Of a stretch of 64,000 nucleotides of DNA, positions 31,846 to 39,822 are shown piece after piece. The stretch is from an uncultured Chroococcidiopsis sp. (GTDB taxonomy: Bacteria; Cyanobacteriota; Cyanobacteriia; Cyanobacteriales; Chroococcidiopsidaceae). Within the stretch, counting starts at the first letter, position 1, and each line of letters starts with the position of its first letter. The position numbers and the translations under genes were made by a program. A model generated the notes under the pieces. That model saw nothing but the letters and a program-made list of their open reading frames with translations. It was not told the origin of the DNA and did not search any database. The stretch covers positions 32,001 to 96,000 of the forward strand of contig CAXTYC010000010.1 in assembly GCA_964248365.1 (NCBI GenBank). The letters are read 5' to 3'.

Positions 31846-33135
31846 GTGAACATAGAAACTCTTGTTCAAGATCCTTCTATTCCAGCAGAATCAGCTCCAG
31901 CCATTGATCCTTACGATCCGGCTAGCTTTAATGAGTCTGTAATGACTACCTACGCTCGCTTTCCTCTGGCTCTAGAGCGCGGGGCTGGCTGTCGGGTGTG
32001 GGATACTCAAGGACGAGAATATCTAGATTTTGTGGCGGGGATTGCTACTTGCACTTTGGGACACGCTCATCCTGCTTTGGTAGAAACGGTAACGCGGCAA
32101 ATTCAGACTTTGCACCACGTTTCTAATTTGTACTATATTCCCGTGCAAGCTGAGCTAGCCAAGTGGTTGATTTCCCATTCCTGCACTGATCGCGTGTTCT
32201 TTTGCAACTCTGGGGCGGAAGCAAATGAAGGAGCGATTAAACTAGCTCGGAAGTATGCCCATACAGTGCTAGGAATTCAGCATCCTGTGATTTTAACAGC
32301 GAATGCTAGTTTTCATGGCAGGACATTGGCAACGATTACGGCAACAGGTCAACCAAAGTATCAAAAAGATTTTAGTCCCCTAGTGCCTGGTTTTCATTAC
32401 GTACCTTATAACGATATTGCCCTCCTCAAAGAAGCAATTGGGGAACTAGATGAAGGCGATCGCGCAGTAGCGGCAATTCTTTTGGAACCGTTGCAAGGCG
32501 AAGGTGGTGTAAGACCAGGAGATATAGCATACTTCCAGCAAATACGCAAGATATGTGACGAAACTGGGATTTTACTTATCCTAGACGAAGTGCAAGTCGG
32601 AATGGGTCGCAGTGGCAAGCTTTGGGGTTATGAAAATTTGGGCATTGAACCAGATATTTTCACCAGTGCTAAAGGCTTAGGCGGTGGTATTCCGATTGGT
32701 GCTATGATGTGCAAAAAGTTCTGCGATGTCTTCCAAGCCGGAGATCATGCCAGTACATTTGGCGGAAATCCCTTTGCTTGTGCAGCAGCTTTGTGCGTGT
32801 GTGAAACGATAGAACGGGAAAATCTTCTGCAAAACGTGCAATCACGGGGCGAACAGCTACGGAATGGCTTGAAGGCGATCGCAGCCAAATATCCCAGTCA
32901 AATTACCGATGTACGCGGCTGGGGTTTGATTAATGGTATGGAACTAAATGCAGACATTCAGCTAACTGCTGCTGATGTTGTTAAAGCTGGCATAGCTGAA
33001 GGCTTGTTGCTAGTACCAGCAGGACCAAAAGTAGTTCGCTTTGTTCCACCTTTGATTGTTAGCGAAGCAGAAGTTAATACGGCATTGCAAGCAGTTGAAC
33101 GAGCAATGGCATCTGTAATGCGCGTAACCGTATAG
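31846..33135 (+). CDS. argD: Acetylornithine aminotransferase
   Basis: FCNSGAEANEG, FHGRT, EPLQGEGG, DEVQVGMGR, SAKGLGGG and HASTFGGNP motifs. Confidence 0.93.
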   Translation: MNIETLVQDPSIPAESAPAIDPYDPASFNESVMTTYARFPLALERGAGCRVWDTQGREYLDFVAGIATCTLGHAHPALVETVTRQIQTLHHVSNLYYIPVQAELAKWLISHSCTDRVFFCNSGAEANEGAIKLARKYAHTVLGIQHPVILTANASFHGRTLATITATGQPKYQKDFSPLVPGFHYVPYNDIALLKEAIGELDEGDRAVAAILLEPLQGEGGVRPGDIAYFQQIRKICDETGILLILDEVQVGMGRSGKLWGYENLGIEPDIFTSAKGLGGGIPIGAMMCKKFCDVFQAGDHASTFGGNPFACAAALCVCETIERENLLQNVQSRGEQLRNGLKAIAAKYPSQITDVRGWGLINGMELNADIQLTAADVVKAGIAEGLLLVPAGPKVVRFVPPLIVSEAEVNTALQAVERAMASVMRVTV

Positions 33136-33169
33136 TTTTGATGCTGACGTAGTAGGCGGCGAACAATAC

Positions 33170-33202
33170 AAAAAAGCCCGTTTCACTTCTTGTGAGACGG
33201 GC
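33170..33202 (-). terminator. Rho-independent terminator hairpin between argD and the intI relic
   Basis: GCCCGTTTCAC-N5-GTGAGACGGGC with an A-run on the left (U-tract on the minus strand). Confidence 0.7.
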
Positions 33203-33232
33203 AAGTTATTATCCAGGGCTTTTCGATAAATT

Positions 33233-33640
33233 AGTACCGTAAAGTAGTTTAATAAGAAGTTGATAAACACCCGATAATTGATTAAAAATTGCTAAAACTT
33301 ATGGCTTTATTAAAATAGTTGTTATATCTCGATTTTGCTTTGCCCTGACTGCATCAACCTTTAAATCTAAATCTTGTTTCAATACCTCTTTATATAAAAA
33401 TAGAATGGCATGGAAGTGCTTGATTTTGATTCGATTCAGCTACGTTTTCATTGAGGGCTAGATGGGTGAAAAAAACCTCTTTTTCCTTACCTCCCATATC
33501 CTTGGGATGATGTTTGTCATGAAAAAGAATGTATCGCCGAATTCAGTTAATATAAGTTTTTTTCTGTTTGGTAAGAATAATGCTTAAGCCGAATTAAGTC
33601 TTGCAGTTGCGGCACTCAGCTTTTTCGGGCGTTATTCCAT
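33233..33640 (-). pseudogene. intI: Integron integrase N-terminal half, with frameshifts and stops, truncated before the catalytic Arg
   Basis: Multi-frame translation: ME*RPKKL / LQDLIRLKHYSYQTEK / YIN*IRRYILFHDKHHPKDMGG / FTHLALNENVAESNQNQAL / AILFLYKEVLKQDLDLKVDAVRAK...TILIKP*VLAIFNQLSGVYQLLIKLLYGT. Confidence 0.88.
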
Positions 33641-33664
33641 AGAGTGATATCTAGAATTTATCTG

Positions 33665-33723
33665 TATAATGCTCTAATACAGTTGTTATTTAGAAAAATT
33701 CTGGATAACACCAATAGTTATGT
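33665..33723 (+). promoter_or_regulatory. Putative attI core, with a possible cassette promoter -10 element (TATAAT 33665-33670)
   Basis: ATAAC-ACCAATA-GTTAT inverted core (33705-33721) and G|TTATGT crossover at 33717, ~80 bp upstream of the intI start. Confidence 0.65.
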
Positions 33724-33827
33724 GGCTTAAGTTCAGCAGTTGTGGCAGTAGTTTGAATGTTATGTGTGGATGTTCAACATCAAAGCGAATCTTAGACTCA
33801 AGATAACAGTGCATACATTGGTAAGGT

Positions 33828-34406
33828 ATGGGAGCAGACATATACATCTACGCTGAGATTCGGAAAGATGATGACTGGGAACCTGTACCTGAACCTGCTG
33901 TTTCAAGGTCTAAGAAAGTTCCTATTGACTCAATCAATCTTCCTTGTACTCGCCCATATCGATTATTTGTCATGCTTTCAGGCATTTATCATCACGCTGT
34001 TTTAGGCGTGGCAAGACCTATTTCAGAGCTACGAGGATTTCCAGATGATATGAATGCTGTTTACAAAGAGTATTTTGACCAACACGGTACAGGAGTTGGA
34101 CGTTCTTAGTTAATGGTTGGAGAAATCATTAATTACAAGTGGGATAGTGAGTTTGTGATGTATAGAGCTTGTGTTGATAAGAAGTACGCTCCGCTATTTC
34201 ACGAACGTTCTCCTTTCCCTGATGCCTTTCCAAAGGGCGCTTCCATCTATCACACACAACAACCTGGTACTGTTTAGGTTTCGTGGAAAAGTAGTTGTCG
34301 AGAATTTGTGAACTTAGACCACGAAACCTGTTTAGAGGACTTCATTGAGGAGTTACTAAAGCTAGGAGATCCAGATAAAGTAAGGATTATTTTTTTGTTT
34401 CTTTAA
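33828..34406 (+). pseudogene. Integron cassette 1: hypothetical protein with two in-frame TAG stops
   Basis: 193-codon frame MGADIYIYAE...RGFPDD...S*LMVGEI...PDKVRIIFLF; stops at 34107 and 34275. Confidence 0.75.
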
Positions 34407-34419
34407 GTTGAGATACGCC

Positions 34420-34468
34420 GCATAACAATCCCGTTGCACACTGACCGCATCAAGTGAAATTTCTAGGC
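34420..34468 (+). other. Degenerate attC site of cassette 1
   Basis: R'' GCATAAC, then GTTGCACACTGA...TCAAGTGAAA; right end eroded; GCCGCATAAC is 9/10 complementary to the cassette start GTTATGTGGC. Confidence 0.6.
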
Positions 34469-34469
34469 A

Positions 34470-34559
34470 AGCCACCCATGCCCACGATTATCAGAAAGAG
34501 CGGGCAGGGGTGGCAAACCCCTTCATCTACTGTTCACGAATGTTTTAGGATTGCTATAT
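34470..34559. repeat. Dispersed MITE/REP-like element next to the degenerate attC
   Basis: Reverse complement TAGCAATCC...GTGAACAGTAGATGA resembles 59649-59735. Confidence 0.5.
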
Positions 34560-34769
34560 AATAATGAACCATTCTACAATGGTCTATGTATTACTATTTA
34601 TGCTGCTGATTATATCTGCTCTCATCAAGGTAAGTAGATTAGGACGAACTCACTAGATGATCGAACAACACTTGAACAAGCATATTATCAGCAAAATATT
34701 CTTATCACGCATTAAGATCACTTGAATGTGGTTGATGATAAACTCCTAACTCTATAGCAAATCAAGCAT

Positions 34770-35072
34770 CTATCCAATTTTTTAAAAGATGCGCCAGATA
34801 ACGTTTTTGCATATATTGGAAAATGGGTATATTGAAAAGAGGTTTACGTGAACTTGGCTTGTCGGAAGATATGCCCCGCGTTGGCTGGCAAAGAGGATAC
34901 TATCGCTGTCCCCTAGCTCAGAACTGGAAGGAATATCTGCTGGGAGACACAAATCGAGTAGTATGGCGAGAGTTTACAAAAGAGAGATTTGGTAAGCTAC
35001 TGGCATGAACGGTGGGTTGCTCCAAGACTGGATATGCTGCAAACCAATTTGGAATTAGAACCTATTTTGTAG
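34770..35072 (+). pseudogene. C-terminal fragment resembling Druantia DruA (DUF4338)
   Basis: YWKMGILKRGLRELGLSEDMPRVGWQRGYYRCPLAQNWKEYLLG... then, after +1 shift, DLVSYWHERWVAPR; recalled motif match only. Confidence 0.5.
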
Positions 35073-35153
35073 AATTTGCCAAACTTTATAGGATAAATCA
35101 TATCTTGCATGGCTCAGGTAGAGGGGGTATTGTGTTTAACCTATACTTAGGTT

Positions 35154-35570
35154 ATGCCCAGGTTAGACATCATCCATGACGCTGTAAAAAATGCACTGAT
35201 AAAGGACGGCGGGACGATTACAGACGATCCCTACATAATTCAGTATCGAAGAACAACGTTGTACGCTGATCTTGGTGCTGAACGCCCTATTGCGGCTGAA
35301 CGCAATGGACAGAAGCTTATCATTGAAGTCAAAAGCTTCGTTGGCGCATCAAAAATACAAGATTTGAAAGAAGCTCTCGGTCAGTACGATATCTATCGCT
35401 ATCTTTTAGAGGTAACAGCGCCAGAGCGCAAACTTTATGTTGCTGTCAGTGTAGTCCCTTATAACACCTTTTTTAAGCAGGACGTGGTTCAACTCATTCT
35501 TAATAGACACCAACTTCCACTCATTGTCGTAGACATAGAGGTAGAGGAGATTACGCAATGGATAAATTAA
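35154..35570 (+). CDS. xisH: XisH family PD-(D/E)XK-fold protein
   Basis: HDAVKNALIKDG.TITDDP, ADLGAE, IEVKSF and ALGQY motifs. Confidence 0.93.
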   Translation: MPRLDIIHDAVKNALIKDGGTITDDPYIIQYRRTTLYADLGAERPIAAERNGQKLIIEVKSFVGASKIQDLKEALGQYDIYRYLLEVTAPERKLYVAVSVVPYNTFFKQDVVQLILNRHQLPLIVVDIEVEEITQWIN

Positions 35571-35902
35571 CTGAGTATCCCAAGCTAATCAAACGTATCT
35601 TGGCGGAATATATAGAATTGTGTAACCGCCGTTCCGACCGAGACATCGAAACATTCTTGATTGTAGATGAGCTAAAGGGTCACTATATTTGGATGAACCT
35701 TGGTTGGCAAAATGGCGATCGCATTACTGGTATGACAGTTTACGTTCGTATTCGTGATGGTAAGTTCTGGATCGAGGAAGATTGGACTGAAGATGGCATT
35801 GCAACTGATCTAGTTCGTGCGGGTGTTCCCAAGGAAGATATCGTGTTGGCATTCCACGAGCCTAAGATGCGGCAGTACACCGATTTTGCCTCTGCGTCGT
35901 AG
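35558..35902 (+). CDS. xisI: XisI family protein
   Basis: MDKL start overlapping xisH; GKFWIEEDWTEDGIATDLVRAGVPKEDIVLAFH. Confidence 0.93.
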   Translation: MDKLTEYPKLIKRILAEYIELCNRRSDRDIETFLIVDELKGHYIWMNLGWQNGDRITGMTVYVRIRDGKFWIEEDWTEDGIATDLVRAGVPKEDIVLAFHEPKMRQYTDFASAS

Positions 35903-35912
35903 CAGTTGTACA

Positions 35913-35999
35913 GGCTAACAACCCATTGGAGCGGACGGACGAAAGCCTTCGGTATCGTGGCATAAGGCTGTCTACCGCCGCTCATCTGTGCCGTTATGC
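35913..35999 (+). other. Complete attC site (87 bp)
   Basis: R'' GGCTAAC, 5 nt, TG(G)AGCGG(A)CGG ... AGCCTT/AAGGCT ... CCGCCGCTCA, spacer, R' GTTATGC; two extrahelical bases on the left arm. Confidence 0.85.
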
Positions 36000-38096
36000 C
36001 GCAGCTAAGCCACTATGTCTGAGTAAAGGCTCGGTACTCGGTTCGCGTCCTCGGAAGGACTTAAACACCTCCATCGGGTGTTTGCTACCACCCAAAGCCA
36101 GGACGGTTTCGCGGAAGCGCTTACCAGTAGCAGTTATAGCCTGAGAATCTTCCAAGCCAGCTTCTTCAAAAGCACTGAAAGCATCAGCGCTTAATACTTC
36201 AGCCCACTTGTAGCTGTAATAACCTGCGGCATAACCCCCCGTAAAGATATGCCCAAACGAGCATAAAAATGCATCTTCTGGTAGAGGTGGCAAGACAGTA
36301 GTTGTTTTAGCAATGCGGTTACGCACATCATTCACACTTTCACTACTGCCTGGTTGATAGCGGTGATGCAGTTCTAAGTCAACTAAGCCAAAGTGTAACT
36401 GTCGCAGCATAGCACTACCACTCATATAATTACGAGCAGCCAACAGCTTTTGATAATAATGTTCTGGCAAAGTTTCACCTGTTTCGTAGTGCTTCGCCAT
36501 TCCCAGCAATGTCTCGCGGTGGTAACACCAGTTTTCCATGAACTGGCTGGGTAGTTCGACGGCATCCCACTCGACATTATTGATTCCGGCTGCTCCTGCG
36601 TAATCTACCTTAGTCAGCATATGCTGCAACCCGTGACCAAACTCGTGAAATAGAGTTTCCACCTCTCTGAAAGTCATTAAGCTGGGCTTACCATCTACTG
36701 GGGGTGTTTGATTACACACCAAATATGCTACTGGTTTGCGGGTAATAGTTGTGCCATCGGTTGTAGTAATTTTGGCACGACCGATGCAATCATCCATCCA
36801 AGCGCCGCCACGTTTTTCGGCTGGACGACTGTAGGGATCTAAGTAGAAGTAGGCGATCGCTTCCCCTGATTCGTCAGCAATTTGGAAATACCGCACATCC
36901 TCGTGCCATACTGGAGCTTGACCATCGGCAGCAGTAACGGTAACACCAAAAATCCGCTTTACTAGGTCAAACAACCCATTTAGCACTTGGGGTAGAGGGA
37001 AGTAAGGACGCAGTTCTTCATCACTAAAGGCAAATTTTTCTTCTCGCTGGCGTTCAGCCCAATAGCTAACATCCCAGTGCTTGAGATCGTTAGCTTCCGG
37101 TGCGCCTTTAGATGCAGCAAAGGCTTTTAGCTCCTCAAACTCTTTTTTAGCAGCATCATAACTAGCACGGCGCAGTTCTTCATGTAGCGCCTCTACTGCG
37201 TCATAACTAGGAGCCATTTTACTAGCTAAGCTTAATTCAGCATAGCTGTTAAAGCCAAGTATATTTGCTTCTTCCTGACGCAGTTGTAAAATTCGTTCAA
37301 TGATTTGTGTATTATCTAACTCACCGGATGAAGCGCGGCTGATGAAAGCCTTATAAAGTTTCTCCCGTAAATCCCGACGTTTGCTGTGTTGCATGAAGGG
37401 ACCATAACTGGGGAAATCTAGAGTAATCCGCCAGGGACCATTTTCAGCAGTGGCATTTTCTTCACCCGCAGCACGAGCAGAAGCAGCAGCAAGACTGAGT
37501 AGGCTGGGGGGTAAACCGTCGATTTCGTCTTTGTTTGTCAGAGTAAGGCTAAAAGCTTTAGTAGCGTCTAAGACGTGGTTGGAAAATTTAGTAGAAAGTT
37601 CTGCTAATTCTAGCTGAATGGCGTTGAAGCGATCGCGCTTCTCTCCCTCCAAACCTACACCCGAAAGTTCGGCATCTCTAATCGCTGCTTCCACAATTCT
37701 TTTTTGGGCATCTTCTAGGCTATCCCATTCTTTACTATCCCGCAGCGCCTTAAAAGCTTCATACAGTGGTTTACTTTGATTGAGCTTATTGTAGAATTGC
37801 ACTACTTGGGGTTGTACGGTTTCGTAAGCCGTTCGCAATTCTGGGCTATTCTTCACACCCATTAGATGCCCAACTATACCCCAACTCCAGCGTAGGCGAT
37901 CGCTCAAGCGGTCTAGTGGCTCTACTAAGCCGCTCCAAGTGGGTTGCACTTTTGCCTCTAATTTGCTAAGTTCTGTTTCTAATTCTGCCAGCAGCTGCGT
38001 CATCGCTGGCTCAACGTGTTCAGGCTTAATGGTTGCAAACGGTGGTAGTCCCTCACCAATCAGCAACGGATTATCAGTAACTGTGCTTACACTCAT
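35994..38096 (-). CDS. prlC: Oligopeptidase A (M3 family)
   Basis: KRGGAWM, FHEFGHGLQH, DAVELPSQFMENW and GYYSYKWAEV motifs. Confidence 0.95.
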   Translation of the reverse strand: MSVSTVTDNPLLIGEGLPPFATIKPEHVEPAMTQLLAELETELSKLEAKVQPTWSGLVEPLDRLSDRLRWSWGIVGHLMGVKNSPELRTAYETVQPQVVQFYNKLNQSKPLYEAFKALRDSKEWDSLEDAQKRIVEAAIRDAELSGVGLEGEKRDRFNAIQLELAELSTKFSNHVLDATKAFSLTLTNKDEIDGLPPSLLSLAAASARAAGEENATAENGPWRITLDFPSYGPFMQHSKRRDLREKLYKAFISRASSGELDNTQIIERILQLRQEEANILGFNSYAELSLASKMAPSYDAVEALHEELRRASYDAAKKEFEELKAFAASKGAPEANDLKHWDVSYWAERQREEKFAFSDEELRPYFPLPQVLNGLFDLVKRIFGVTVTAADGQAPVWHEDVRYFQIADESGEAIAYFYLDPYSRPAEKRGGAWMDDCIGRAKITTTDGTTITRKPVAYLVCNQTPPVDGKPSLMTFREVETLFHEFGHGLQHMLTKVDYAGAAGINNVEWDAVELPSQFMENWCYHRETLLGMAKHYETGETLPEHYYQKLLAARNYMSGSAMLRQLHFGLVDLELHHRYQPGSSESVNDVRNRIAKTTTVLPPLPEDAFLCSFGHIFTGGYAAGYYSYKWAEVLSADAFSAFEEAGLEDSQAITATGKRFRETVLALGGSKHPMEVFKSFRGREPSTEPLLRHSGLAAA

Positions 38097-38573: not shown

Positions 38574-38676
38574 AGTAGGTCGTCTGAAATAAACAGCGAA
38601 CCGTGTGTTGGCGGATCTGTTATGCAGCAAGGGTTATCTATGTTGACGGTTCGCTGTTTATTTATGACTTTGTACT
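38574..38676. mobile_element. 103-bp MITE with imperfect 30-bp terminal inverted repeats, flanked by a TA duplication
   Basis: AGTAGGTCGTCTGAAATAAACAGCGAACCG ... CGGTTCGCTGTTTATTTATGACTTTGTACT; TA at 38572-38573 and 38677-38678. Confidence 0.8.
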
Positions 38677-39822
38677 TAGTAGTACGCTTTCAACTTCTAC
38701 ATCATCCTCATTGAAGATAATCGTCTCAAATCTAAATCTATAGCCAGACCATCTGATAGTAGGTAGTCTATCTACTGCGTCCTGTAAGTATTTTATTATG
38801 TTGTAAGTTTTTGGATCAGGATTTTTCTGCCCCTGCTCTACCCACCAATAAACATTGTGCCTAACAAAGTGCTTCCCATTTCCATTAGTACATACCTCTA
38901 TTTCCACACCGTCTACAAACAAAAACTGACGAGACATTTCTCTAGCTTCGCCTTCTGGCATTGGTTCTAATTCCTCCCAAGGTTCGACTTCAATAAAATC
39001 TTTATGCTTTTGCTGCTGATGTTTGACTGTAAGCTCTATCGCAATAGGATCATCTTCTAATGCACCTAGACTTGAAGCGTCTTCCTTTAGCTCTGGTGTA
39101 TTCTCTATAATTGTTTCTAGCTGCTTGCGACTAAAAGCCATCAGCTCTACACCTGCTACCGTCCGACGAGTCGCATCATGCATAAAATCGACTAATCCCT
39201 GAATCGGAGCTAGGTCTATTCTTATACCGTTGTACTCGGTTTCCCAATACCCAAATTTACCTAGAGATTTAGGATCTGTGTGGTATTGTTTCCACTTCAA
39301 AGAGCTAGCTTTTTTATTGATGTTTCTTAATGCACTGCGTATGCTACCTGATACACCGCGCTTGCCATACACGGGGTAAACTAAATATATTGTCGGCGGT
39401 TCTTCTTCAGCAATTGGGTTAAACCCAAATACCATAACATTCAACTTGGTTAGCTGTTGAAGGCTTTGTTGTAAAGCTATTTCAACTGAAGTTATTTTTC
39501 TAACTGGTACTACTACTTTTGACCAATTCAGCGGCGGCTTGTATAATTTTATAAACTGATCTTCGAGATTTGAGAGAGTATTGATATCATTACTACAAGT
39601 TATCCAGCTAATACTAACGCGGTCTTTTCGATTAAACCTTTTTAGCTGGTTAAATCTGTGGTGCTGTCTCCAACGCTCAACTAAGTTGACTGTTCTACCA
39701 ATATAAAGAACATGACCTTTACTGTCAGATACAAAGTAAATGGCTGCACAATTGGGGAGATTATTTCTGTCTAATAAATAAACTGATGGCAAGTCAGACA
39801 ATTTGATGTTTTCTAATAACAT
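38662..39822 (-). CDS. GIY-YIG nuclease-domain protein; C-terminus truncated by the MITE
   Basis: AIYFV...LYIGRTVNLVERWRQHHR...E..FIKLYKPPLN; stop codon supplied by the MITE. Confidence 0.8.
   Translation of the reverse strand: MLLENIKLSDLPSVYLLDRNNLPNCAAIYFVSDSKGHVLYIGRTVNLVERWRQHHRFNQLKRFNRKDRVSISWITCSNDINTLSNLEDQFIKLYKPPLNWSKVVVPVRKITSVEIALQQSLQQLTKLNVMVFGFNPIAEEEPPTIYLVYPVYGKRGVSGSIRSALRNINKKASSLKWKQYHTDPKSLGKFGYWETEYNGIRIDLAPIQGLVDFMHDATRRTVAGVELMAFSRKQLETIIENTPELKEDASSLGALEDDPIAIELTVKHQQQKHKDFIEVEPWEELEPMPEGEAREMSRQFLFVDGVEIEVCTNGNGKHFVRHNVYWWVEQGQKNPDPKTYNIIKYLQDAVDRLPTIRWSGYRFRFETIIFNEDDVEVESVLLSTKS

Follow-up and report, generated by a model that had tools for sequence, protein, structure and literature searches.

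Between the genes argD and prlC of a cyanobacterial chromosome lies what is, with high probability, the relic of a chromosomal integron: a platform (the integrase gene intI with its attachment site attI) that likely arrived as a unit, likely swapped gene cassettes with its own integrase, and now survives as a broken intI, a shortened attI, two damaged cassettes and, still intact, an xisH-xisI gene pair and one attC site. The stretch that we analysed (the window: 64,000 nucleotides, positions 32001-96000 of contig C10) is cyanobacterial by its gene content, and its host genome, G000, is assembled to 5.58 Mb in 102 contigs at 99.97% completeness; G001 to G028 denote genomes of relatives, and L-numbers denote excised loci. 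A preliminary description of the window had proposed integron architecture here, with a dead integrase and an array that is frozen and decaying unless IntI is supplied in trans. How much of this can be believed? The architecture stands: an IntI-type fragment lies divergent to attI, and an independent model scores the attC. The integrase is dead, its gene broken and cut short after codon 136. The frozen array holds up in that the assembly has no intact intI; the decay, however, is not uniform, since xisH and xisI are intact.

The integrase, its attachment site and the attC

By sequence, the recombinase fragment is a member of the IntI subfamily, of which it keeps the N-terminal half only. The best TIGR02249 matches in the genome lie in it (33227-33421, E 7e-13, and 33381-33569, E 1e-11, at profile positions 17-130); none of the genome's 15 matches reaches the family cut-off, which relatives' IntI copies pass. 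The fragment matches PF13495 and is 54-61% identical to a relative's intact IntI, and the other tyrosine recombinases of the genome reach at most 27% identity to that protein over long stretches. A 42-amino-acid piece matches only integron-integrase models in NCBIfam, with no XerC or XerD at E<=1, and among solved structures it matches VchIntIA (2a3v) at E 2.5e-6, the runner-up standing at E 0.4. On each of these tests (TIGR02249, NCBIfam and 2a3v), IntI and not some other recombinase is the best match.

Set against an open copy from G019, the reading frame is interrupted by stop codons (3, 32 and 113) and thrown off by +1 insertions at about 33612, 33563 and 33413, which agrees with the N-terminal half broken by stops and frameshifts that had been described. 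One detail of that translation needs correction: the intI stretch read as WIRRY is present, but its W is a TGA stop in this copy. The reading ends at LLYGT (codon 136), and the C-terminal catalytic half is deleted; we take this end to precede the IntI catalytic residues. What we take to be the hallmarks of IntI, a C-terminal insertion and those residues, would both lie outside the surviving codons 1-136. A profile search of all 102 contigs, which the preliminary description had recommended, found no intact intI, and the assembly therefore offers no source of IntI in trans. Elsewhere in the genome, intI has left a trace only in a second relic on contig C9, with a few intI codons between aroA and a glutathione S-transferase-like gene. 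That relic (G000:C9:92900-93130; L046:8900-9150) has an attI core with the normal 5-nucleotide spacer and a GNAT gene as its first cassette; no attC was scored there, and G005 lacks the insert.

The attI region has been cut down as well. From the intI start to the crossover the window has 77 nucleotides, compared with 256-260 in the six closest platforms, and DNA from codon 136 to 33714 matches the complete integrons of three relatives at 76%. Where relatives read (T/A)AT-AAATA-G^TTA at the crossover (marked by the caret), the window keeps the same ATAG^TT core, and the GTT at 33717 aligns with their conserved crossover; its spacer, however, is 7 nucleotides instead of 5, the sequence reading ATAAC-ACCAA joined to TAG^TT. 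Those six platforms also carry, between intI start and crossover, 4-6 scored copies of a 25-nucleotide palindrome (consensus composed by us: GTTATAC-GGAAAAATTCC-GTATAAC), of which the window has one clear unit at 33685-33709 and a weaker one near 33644. An attI-like core, ATAAC-N7-GTTAT, had been proposed; it lies at 33705-33721. Its location and its crossover base were right, but as a pattern it does not go beyond chance (one match, and 13 of 100 shuffles have one); because the window attI is shorter, poorer in palindromes and differently spaced from its kin, the N7 core is most likely the scar of an attI deletion of about 180 nucleotides.

Each palindrome consists of two inverted core-like heptamers, and for this reason the palindromes may be putative extra IntI sites like DR1 and DR2 of attI1 (PMC8946536). 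Tandem copies can be seen in relatives' attI at L033:1050-1360, L034:10580-10885, L039:5420-5720 and L042:10300-10600; our literature search found no description of tandem attI palindromes.

At the other end of the array, the complete attC that had been predicted at 35913-35999 scores 67.4 bits (E 2e-16, bottom strand) under a model built from 28 aligned attC sites of relatives, none of them from the window, and used in place of the published cyanobacterial model; the next independent match in the window has 12.9 bits. Its bottom strand folds with a z of -3.3, and 0 of 200 shuffles are as stable. The consensus has an R box, an unpaired spacer and an L box with extrahelical bases, with compensatory change in 10 of 16 pairs, and the R'' and R' boxes, the bottom-strand hairpin and the extrahelical bases are all present in the window's site. 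The TTA of its R' box is the TAA stop of prlC, so that the array ends inside that stop codon. The model finds attC in 27 of 28 family genomes, at least 56 of them in the richest; such counts are lower bounds, 150 candidates having been scored per genome. Two further single attC sites in G000, without intI, lie at C20:10534-10621 and C25:33649-33735 (L107, L108). By eye, the genes ahead of one are a broken toxin-antitoxin-like pair and a small membrane gene; ahead of the other stands a trio of methyltransferase-like, helix-turn-helix and nuclease-like genes.

Two cassettes in decay

Cassette 1 starts at T33718, exactly at the attI crossover, and its start GTTATGTGGC (33717) is complementary to its own R'' flank GCCGCATAAC (34417) at 9 of 10 bases, much as had been noticed before. 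Its gene has suffered two TGG>TAG changes. The intact homologue matches PHROG 10141 (E 1e-14), a family of no assigned function, and the Atlas clusters that match are mostly viral; the gene appears to be of a phage-type family. Among 30 candidates, 8 relatives were found. The right half of the cassette's attC is missing, the attC model has no match there, and a genome-wide repeat resembling repetitive extragenic palindromes (REP) or miniature inverted-repeat transposable elements (MITE) lies on the deletion point. No REP-associated transposase was found beside the repeat at the 3 Y1 transposase loci. The right end of the repeat (34533-34562) resembles a sigma-70 promoter at 10 of 12 positions, facing xisHI.

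Cassette 2 is, on comparison with relatives, the remnant of a cassette of about 4.9 kb carrying nurA-herA-druA-xisH-xisI, from which the window has lost herA and most of nurA and druA. The nurA and druA fragments (34557-35063), like the half-lost attC of cassette 1, do not figure in the preliminary description. PADLOC profiles for DruA1 and HerA and the Pfam NurA family match the intact cassette genes; NurA has no PADLOC match. A scan of the species genomes gave 44 nurA loci, 34 of them with at least 3.3 kb downstream, and among these 34, herA and druA were present in 30 and xisH in 8. Matches to the attC model occur at only 4 of the 44, and therefore the nurA-herA-druA triad mostly occurs without attC. 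The five-gene unit, for its part, lies between two attC sites in L132, has an attC behind it in L161 and in G017:C268, starts at an attI-like site in L163, and stands directly after attI in L154, where its start GTTAGCCTGC is complementary to the R'' flank GCAGGCTAAC at 10 of 10 bases; in the window this start is deleted. The attC of L154 is split in R'' by a reverse-transcriptase element. The insert in that box (L154:12810-16300) holds the reverse-transcriptase element, which is group II intron-like, and an insertion-sequence-like gene; group II introns that target attC are known.

Two simpler ideas about the pair were set aside. GTTATG at the start of xisH might be taken for a cassette start; it was rejected because in relatives that position is GCTATG or ACTATG, and the cassette really begins ahead of nurA. 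Nor is xisH-xisI generally a cassette-borne pair: at 60 further xisI loci an attC lay directly behind in none and upstream in 2. These 60 comprise 59 of 66 matches, to which one from G028 was added; not counted among them are the other 7 matches: the window, G017:C268 (which has an attC), one in G011 (attC upstream and, by eye, a decayed one behind) and, without attC, G022:C32, G024:C153 and two pieces in G018:C82. The G011 locus (L109:5244-6230) holds a different, cassette-like xisH-xisI pair, with an attC upstream, a broken xisH and a decayed attC behind.

Why should xisH and xisI be whole amid so much ruin? Deletions running from nurA into druA, with different endpoints and with xisH-xisI kept, occur in L167, L168, L170 and the window; with that of L158, where xisH is kept up to the contig end, five separate deletions have spared xisH(I). 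On the window's lineage alone, xisH and xisI accumulated 21 non-synonymous and 37 synonymous changes and 0 stops in 252 codons, and the nurA and druA pieces 21.5 and 23.5, with 3 stops, in 141 codons. We think it likely that selection has kept the pair as an addiction or defence module (the addiction role being our own suggestion), and the PADLOC matches and gene content point to a probably defensive role for the five-gene cassette as a whole. In PMC4853749, which cites Hwang 2014, XisH is a likely endonuclease and XisI a directionality factor. Our literature search found no paper that joins XisH and XisI with an integron, and among the matches listed, in largely open literature and main texts, none joins NurA and HerA with DUF4338, or NurA with DruA.

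Table 1. Features of the argD-prlC interval (window positions)
Feature	Position	Strand	Basis
argD, left host flank	31846..33135	+	TIGR00707 over cut-off; PF00202
Terminator-like hairpin (T-run on minus strand)	33170..33202	-	stem 33176-33202; also in relative G005
GTTA 2 bases beyond hairpin, candidate left border of element	33205..33208	+	G005 reads GTCA
intI pseudogene, codons 1-136	33233..33640	-	TIGR02249, PF13495, relatives' IntI, structure match
Shortened attI region, crossover G33717^T33718	33644..33717	+	alignment with relatives' platforms
Cassette 1 gene, 192 codons, two in-frame TAG stops	33828..34406	+	intact homologue has Trp at both
Left half of cassette 1 attC (R'' GCATAAC, L'' arm)	34420..34454	+	same arm in relatives' complete attC
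REP/MITE-like genome-wide repeat on deletion point	34452..34563	.	core 15-mer in 104 exact copies; 34-mer of the right end in 9-10
nurA fragment, codons 65-150 of 410, three stops	34557..34814	+	comparison with relatives, Pfam
druA (DUF4338) 3' fragment, codons 273-353, one frameshift	34815..35063	+	joined to nurA fragment
xisH, intact frame	35154..35570	+	PF08814, E 1e-51
xisI, intact frame	35558..35902	+	PF08869, E 3e-41
Complete attC, 87 nucleotides, crossover G35993^T35994	35913..35999	+ (bottom strand folds)	fold test; model, 67.4 bits
prlC (oligopeptidase A family), right host flank	35994..38096	-	profile matches; convergent to argD

Probable arrival at the argD-prlC gap

The setting is chromosomal, as in a sedentary chromosomal integron, with argD and prlC on either side and no transposase-like open reading frame noticed among those listed. 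The content of guanine and cytosine is 32-43% across 33200-35600, compared with 44-49% in the flanking genes. An Rfam scan of 33000-36200 gave nothing above gathering score, and the repeat finder no informative family; promoter-like sites number 10 against 7.4 expected in the region, which is no enrichment, and none is in attI. Upstream of prlC, an AT-rich stretch holds a gene of 386 amino acids with a GIY-YIG domain (38662-39822, minus strand).

The preliminary description had also asked for a comparison of this interval in relatives. G005, the closest relative, with flanks 87-91% alike to the window, has the same terminator and a shorter intI relic, and its different cassettes (an AIPR gene; a TacA-GNAT pair) end at the same GTTA of the prlC stop. 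In G011, G003 and G004 no integron lies between the two genes, which are adjacent at 90-110 nucleotides; the locus is thus not kept across the genus, in contrast to a sedentary chromosomal integron. Contigs of four environmental runs, compared at 85% likeness, give hints only, as their joints may stem from other organisms. The same intI truncation appears in contigs of three of the four runs; two contigs skip 33506-33763, so that the intI start and attI are gone, and one runs straight from 34454 into 35994, which would make cassette 1 the final one. Among about 310 bases of the intI relic, the two skipping contigs show 46 differences and 7 gaps, and cassette 1 differs in them at 25 of 559 and 38 of 692, which would fit an integrase dead long ago and a cassette useful until recently. 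Together with the other cassettes of G005, ending at the same base, such variants suggest that the array changed after the platform reached this gap.

How did the platform get there? Perhaps, though we lean somewhat against it, its own integrase inserted the whole intI-attI platform at an attG-type site, the stop codon of prlC, between gene and terminator; this concerns the origin and is compatible with a relic. A second locus speaks for it, where the sequence of integron-free alleles (G016, G020) is terminator-TG-GTTAC and the arrays of filled alleles (G015, G008, G009) end on the same stop codon. The empty site there and the G005 prlC end both match GTT-NNN-CRGM, found at 1.2% of the genome's GTT sites and given as the attG hotspot motif in 10.1101/2022.09.11.507474, and in the window GTTA follows the terminator stem after just 2 bases. 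The por-locus platform of G004 and the MTAP-locus platform of G008, in different genera, are 90.6% alike over a prlC background of 76.3%, from which it follows that platforms move at least sometimes; and the window's intI groups, with support of 0.87, with copies from at least five other loci, including MTAP and por, in a tree of 55 sequences that covers the 5' part only, leaves out L154 and an 81-nucleotide piece from G003, and has weak inner support. Yet just 1 of 5 filled and empty comparisons is precise (the imprecise ones include the aroA, hemH and 'B' loci). In the precise case the left junction is GG^CT rather than G^TT, and the allele could also be a precise excision; the left junction of G005 is G^TC. 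The attG motif occurs in native cassette starts too (8 of 34 perfectly, 22 of 34 at 3/4 or better), the second genus pair, G003 and G019, is only 80.2% alike over 75.3%, neither a conserved att-like left end nor any conserved sequence beyond the intI stop was found between loci, and the extra alanine of prlC leaves room for a fusion instead. For the intact integron of G003 and for G001:C11, no syntenic flanks were found with which to compare filled and empty alleles. The second locus (L077:10154-13938, L037, L100, L097 and L098) has held three intI lineages (G015/G008; G009; G019), and its alleles in G016 and G020 are precisely empty. In close relatives, the 3' part of intI at the por locus (L041, L042, L043, L209, L213) has given way to different small gene modules that are toxin-antitoxin-like pairs by eye and are bounded by GCGATCGC octamers (highly iterated palindrome 1, HIP1).

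That fusion we hold to be just as possible as insertion, and no more so: the integron would have come by transformation or on another element, and a deletion would have fused a cassette start to the alanine codons of prlC, the remnant supplying the stop. In G000 and G005 prlC ends GLAAA-TAA-C, one alanine more than the GLAA* of G011, G021, G023 and G001-G004, none of which has TAA-C, and GTTATGCCGC and GTTATGCAGC are common native cassette starts too; but an extra GCN codon arises easily in an alanine run, other relatives' prlC tails vary (TKAA*, ATAA*), and the stop codon at the second locus can be shown to be part of the host DNA. Far less credible is that integrase from elsewhere left isolated cassettes beside an unrelated recombinase fragment, as single attC sites lacking an integron integrase (SALIN) or clusters of attC sites lacking one (CALIN), although attC-only tools would call the one complete attC a single site and the genome has its two other single sites. 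The fragment is IntI and diverges from an attI that is recognisable and in its customary position, with cassette 1 starting exactly at the crossover, and the continuous match to complete integrons over intI and attI refutes the idea. It is improbable, too, that the array is still served by IntI in trans. The last attC is intact, 7 of the 41 genomes searched have an IntI match over the cut-off (as do 44 of 401 genomes of the order, with many broken copies alongside), and the environmental contigs show several array variants at the locus; but G000 has no assembled intI, attI is shortened, the first attC is broken and both cassettes are decayed, and those variants come from strains 5-15% apart and are mostly not precise excisions.

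What weighs against our reading of a relic that came as a unit should be stated plainly. The deleted half of IntI takes with it the IntI-specific C-terminal insertion, and the assembly, being in 102 contigs, might have missed an intI. The cassette promoter Pc was not found, the attI region having no consensus site. Selection on xisHI rests on small numbers: pairwise ratios of non-synonymous to synonymous change (dN/dS) are 0.08-0.15 for xisHI and 0.07-0.10 for the dead druA piece, with no separation, and the window's XisH has Gly where both compared relatives have Trp20. Finally, an empty allele with this terminator was found neither in the 28 family genomes, nor in metagenome contigs (0 matches), nor among the joints listed for the four runs.

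The relic reading nonetheless permits a history. The integron likely arrived as a unit in the gap, and cassettes would have entered at the G^TT of attI, each newcomer presumably pushing older ones toward prlC, which would be why the end bases of the last attC stay the same. Then intI would have been cut back and attI have lost about 180 nucleotides between its repeats, and two deletions would have removed the right attC arm of cassette 1 and the core of the five-gene cassette, with selection likely retaining xisH-xisI. The cell itself could no longer rearrange the array. An incoming IntI could at most act on the attC at 35913-35999, likely the only usable site because attI itself is damaged, with its 5-nucleotide spacing also lost.

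Might the platform itself be a mobile thing? Movement of the whole platform by its integrase is a live hypothesis for us. A bolder and rather doubtful extension would have IntI insert (or excise) the whole intI-attI-cassette unit at attG-like stop-codon sites of convergent housekeeping genes in these cyanobacteria, seeding each genome with many short integrons that then lose intI, with the five-gene cassette repeatedly shrinking to an addictive xisH-xisI.

Meaning and comparison with known systems

Three consequences seem worth drawing. The widespread nurA-herA-druA operon is carried, fused with xisH-xisI, as a genuine integron cassette, which provides one route of its spread and an intact copy for study; since separate deletions keep xisH-xisI and drop the rest, it becomes directly testable whether the pair serves as a toxin-antitoxin system or in defence outside heterocyst rearrangements; and the filled and empty alleles suggest mobility of cyanobacterial chromosomal integron platforms between loci, a point that touches on the origin of new attI loci and of scattered attC clusters.

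Integron relics as such are well known, and ours is an ordinary one with a few details that look undescribed. Already in print are cyanobacterial integrons (PMC4889954, PMC8352920), intI pseudogenes, which make up about a third of intI genes (PMC2426708), and frozen arrays in Xanthomonas (10.1101/2025.06.18.660453). With the Xanthomonas chromosomal integrons and the "pseudo-integrons" of Nemergut et al. (PMC2426708) our relic shares an intI broken by stops and frameshifts together with a large deletion, an array that is fixed, and cassettes that differ between sister lineages at one locus; Xanthomonas, however, has one ancestral locus next to ilvD, whereas here platforms sit at many loci, often several in a genome, with short arrays and damaged attI. 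With CALIN, SALIN and attG insertion (PMC4889954; 10.1101/2022.09.11.507474) it shares attC without a working integrase and an array end in host DNA at GTT. According to the same two sources, an intI pseudogene with attI still present marks about 5% of CALINs, and attG insertion is demonstrated for cassettes, not whole platforms; here intI pseudogene and attI remain, and with one complete attC and an adjacent intI pseudogene the array differs from a CALIN, defined by at least two attC and no intI nearby. The attC is like those of the cyanobacterial family (PMC8352920), homogeneous sites of 84-92 nucleotides with R box, unpaired spacer, L box and extrahelical bases, though scored here with the model from relatives' 28 sites and not the published taxon model.

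The larger cassette, too, has familiar parts. DruA it shares with Druantia type I, but druB-E are absent and the order is nurA-herA-druA-xisH-xisI; NurA and HerA it shares with the NurA-HerA nuclease-helicase and with HerA-linked defence systems, but in this case a single integron cassette unites the triad with xisH-xisI. And with the fdxN element of Anabaena (PMC11249958, PMC4853749) it has in common the tight, overlapping xisH-xisI pair, matched by the Pfam XisH and XisI families, with the difference that no serine recombinase xisF is seen here and that xisH-xisI forms the tail of an integron cassette.

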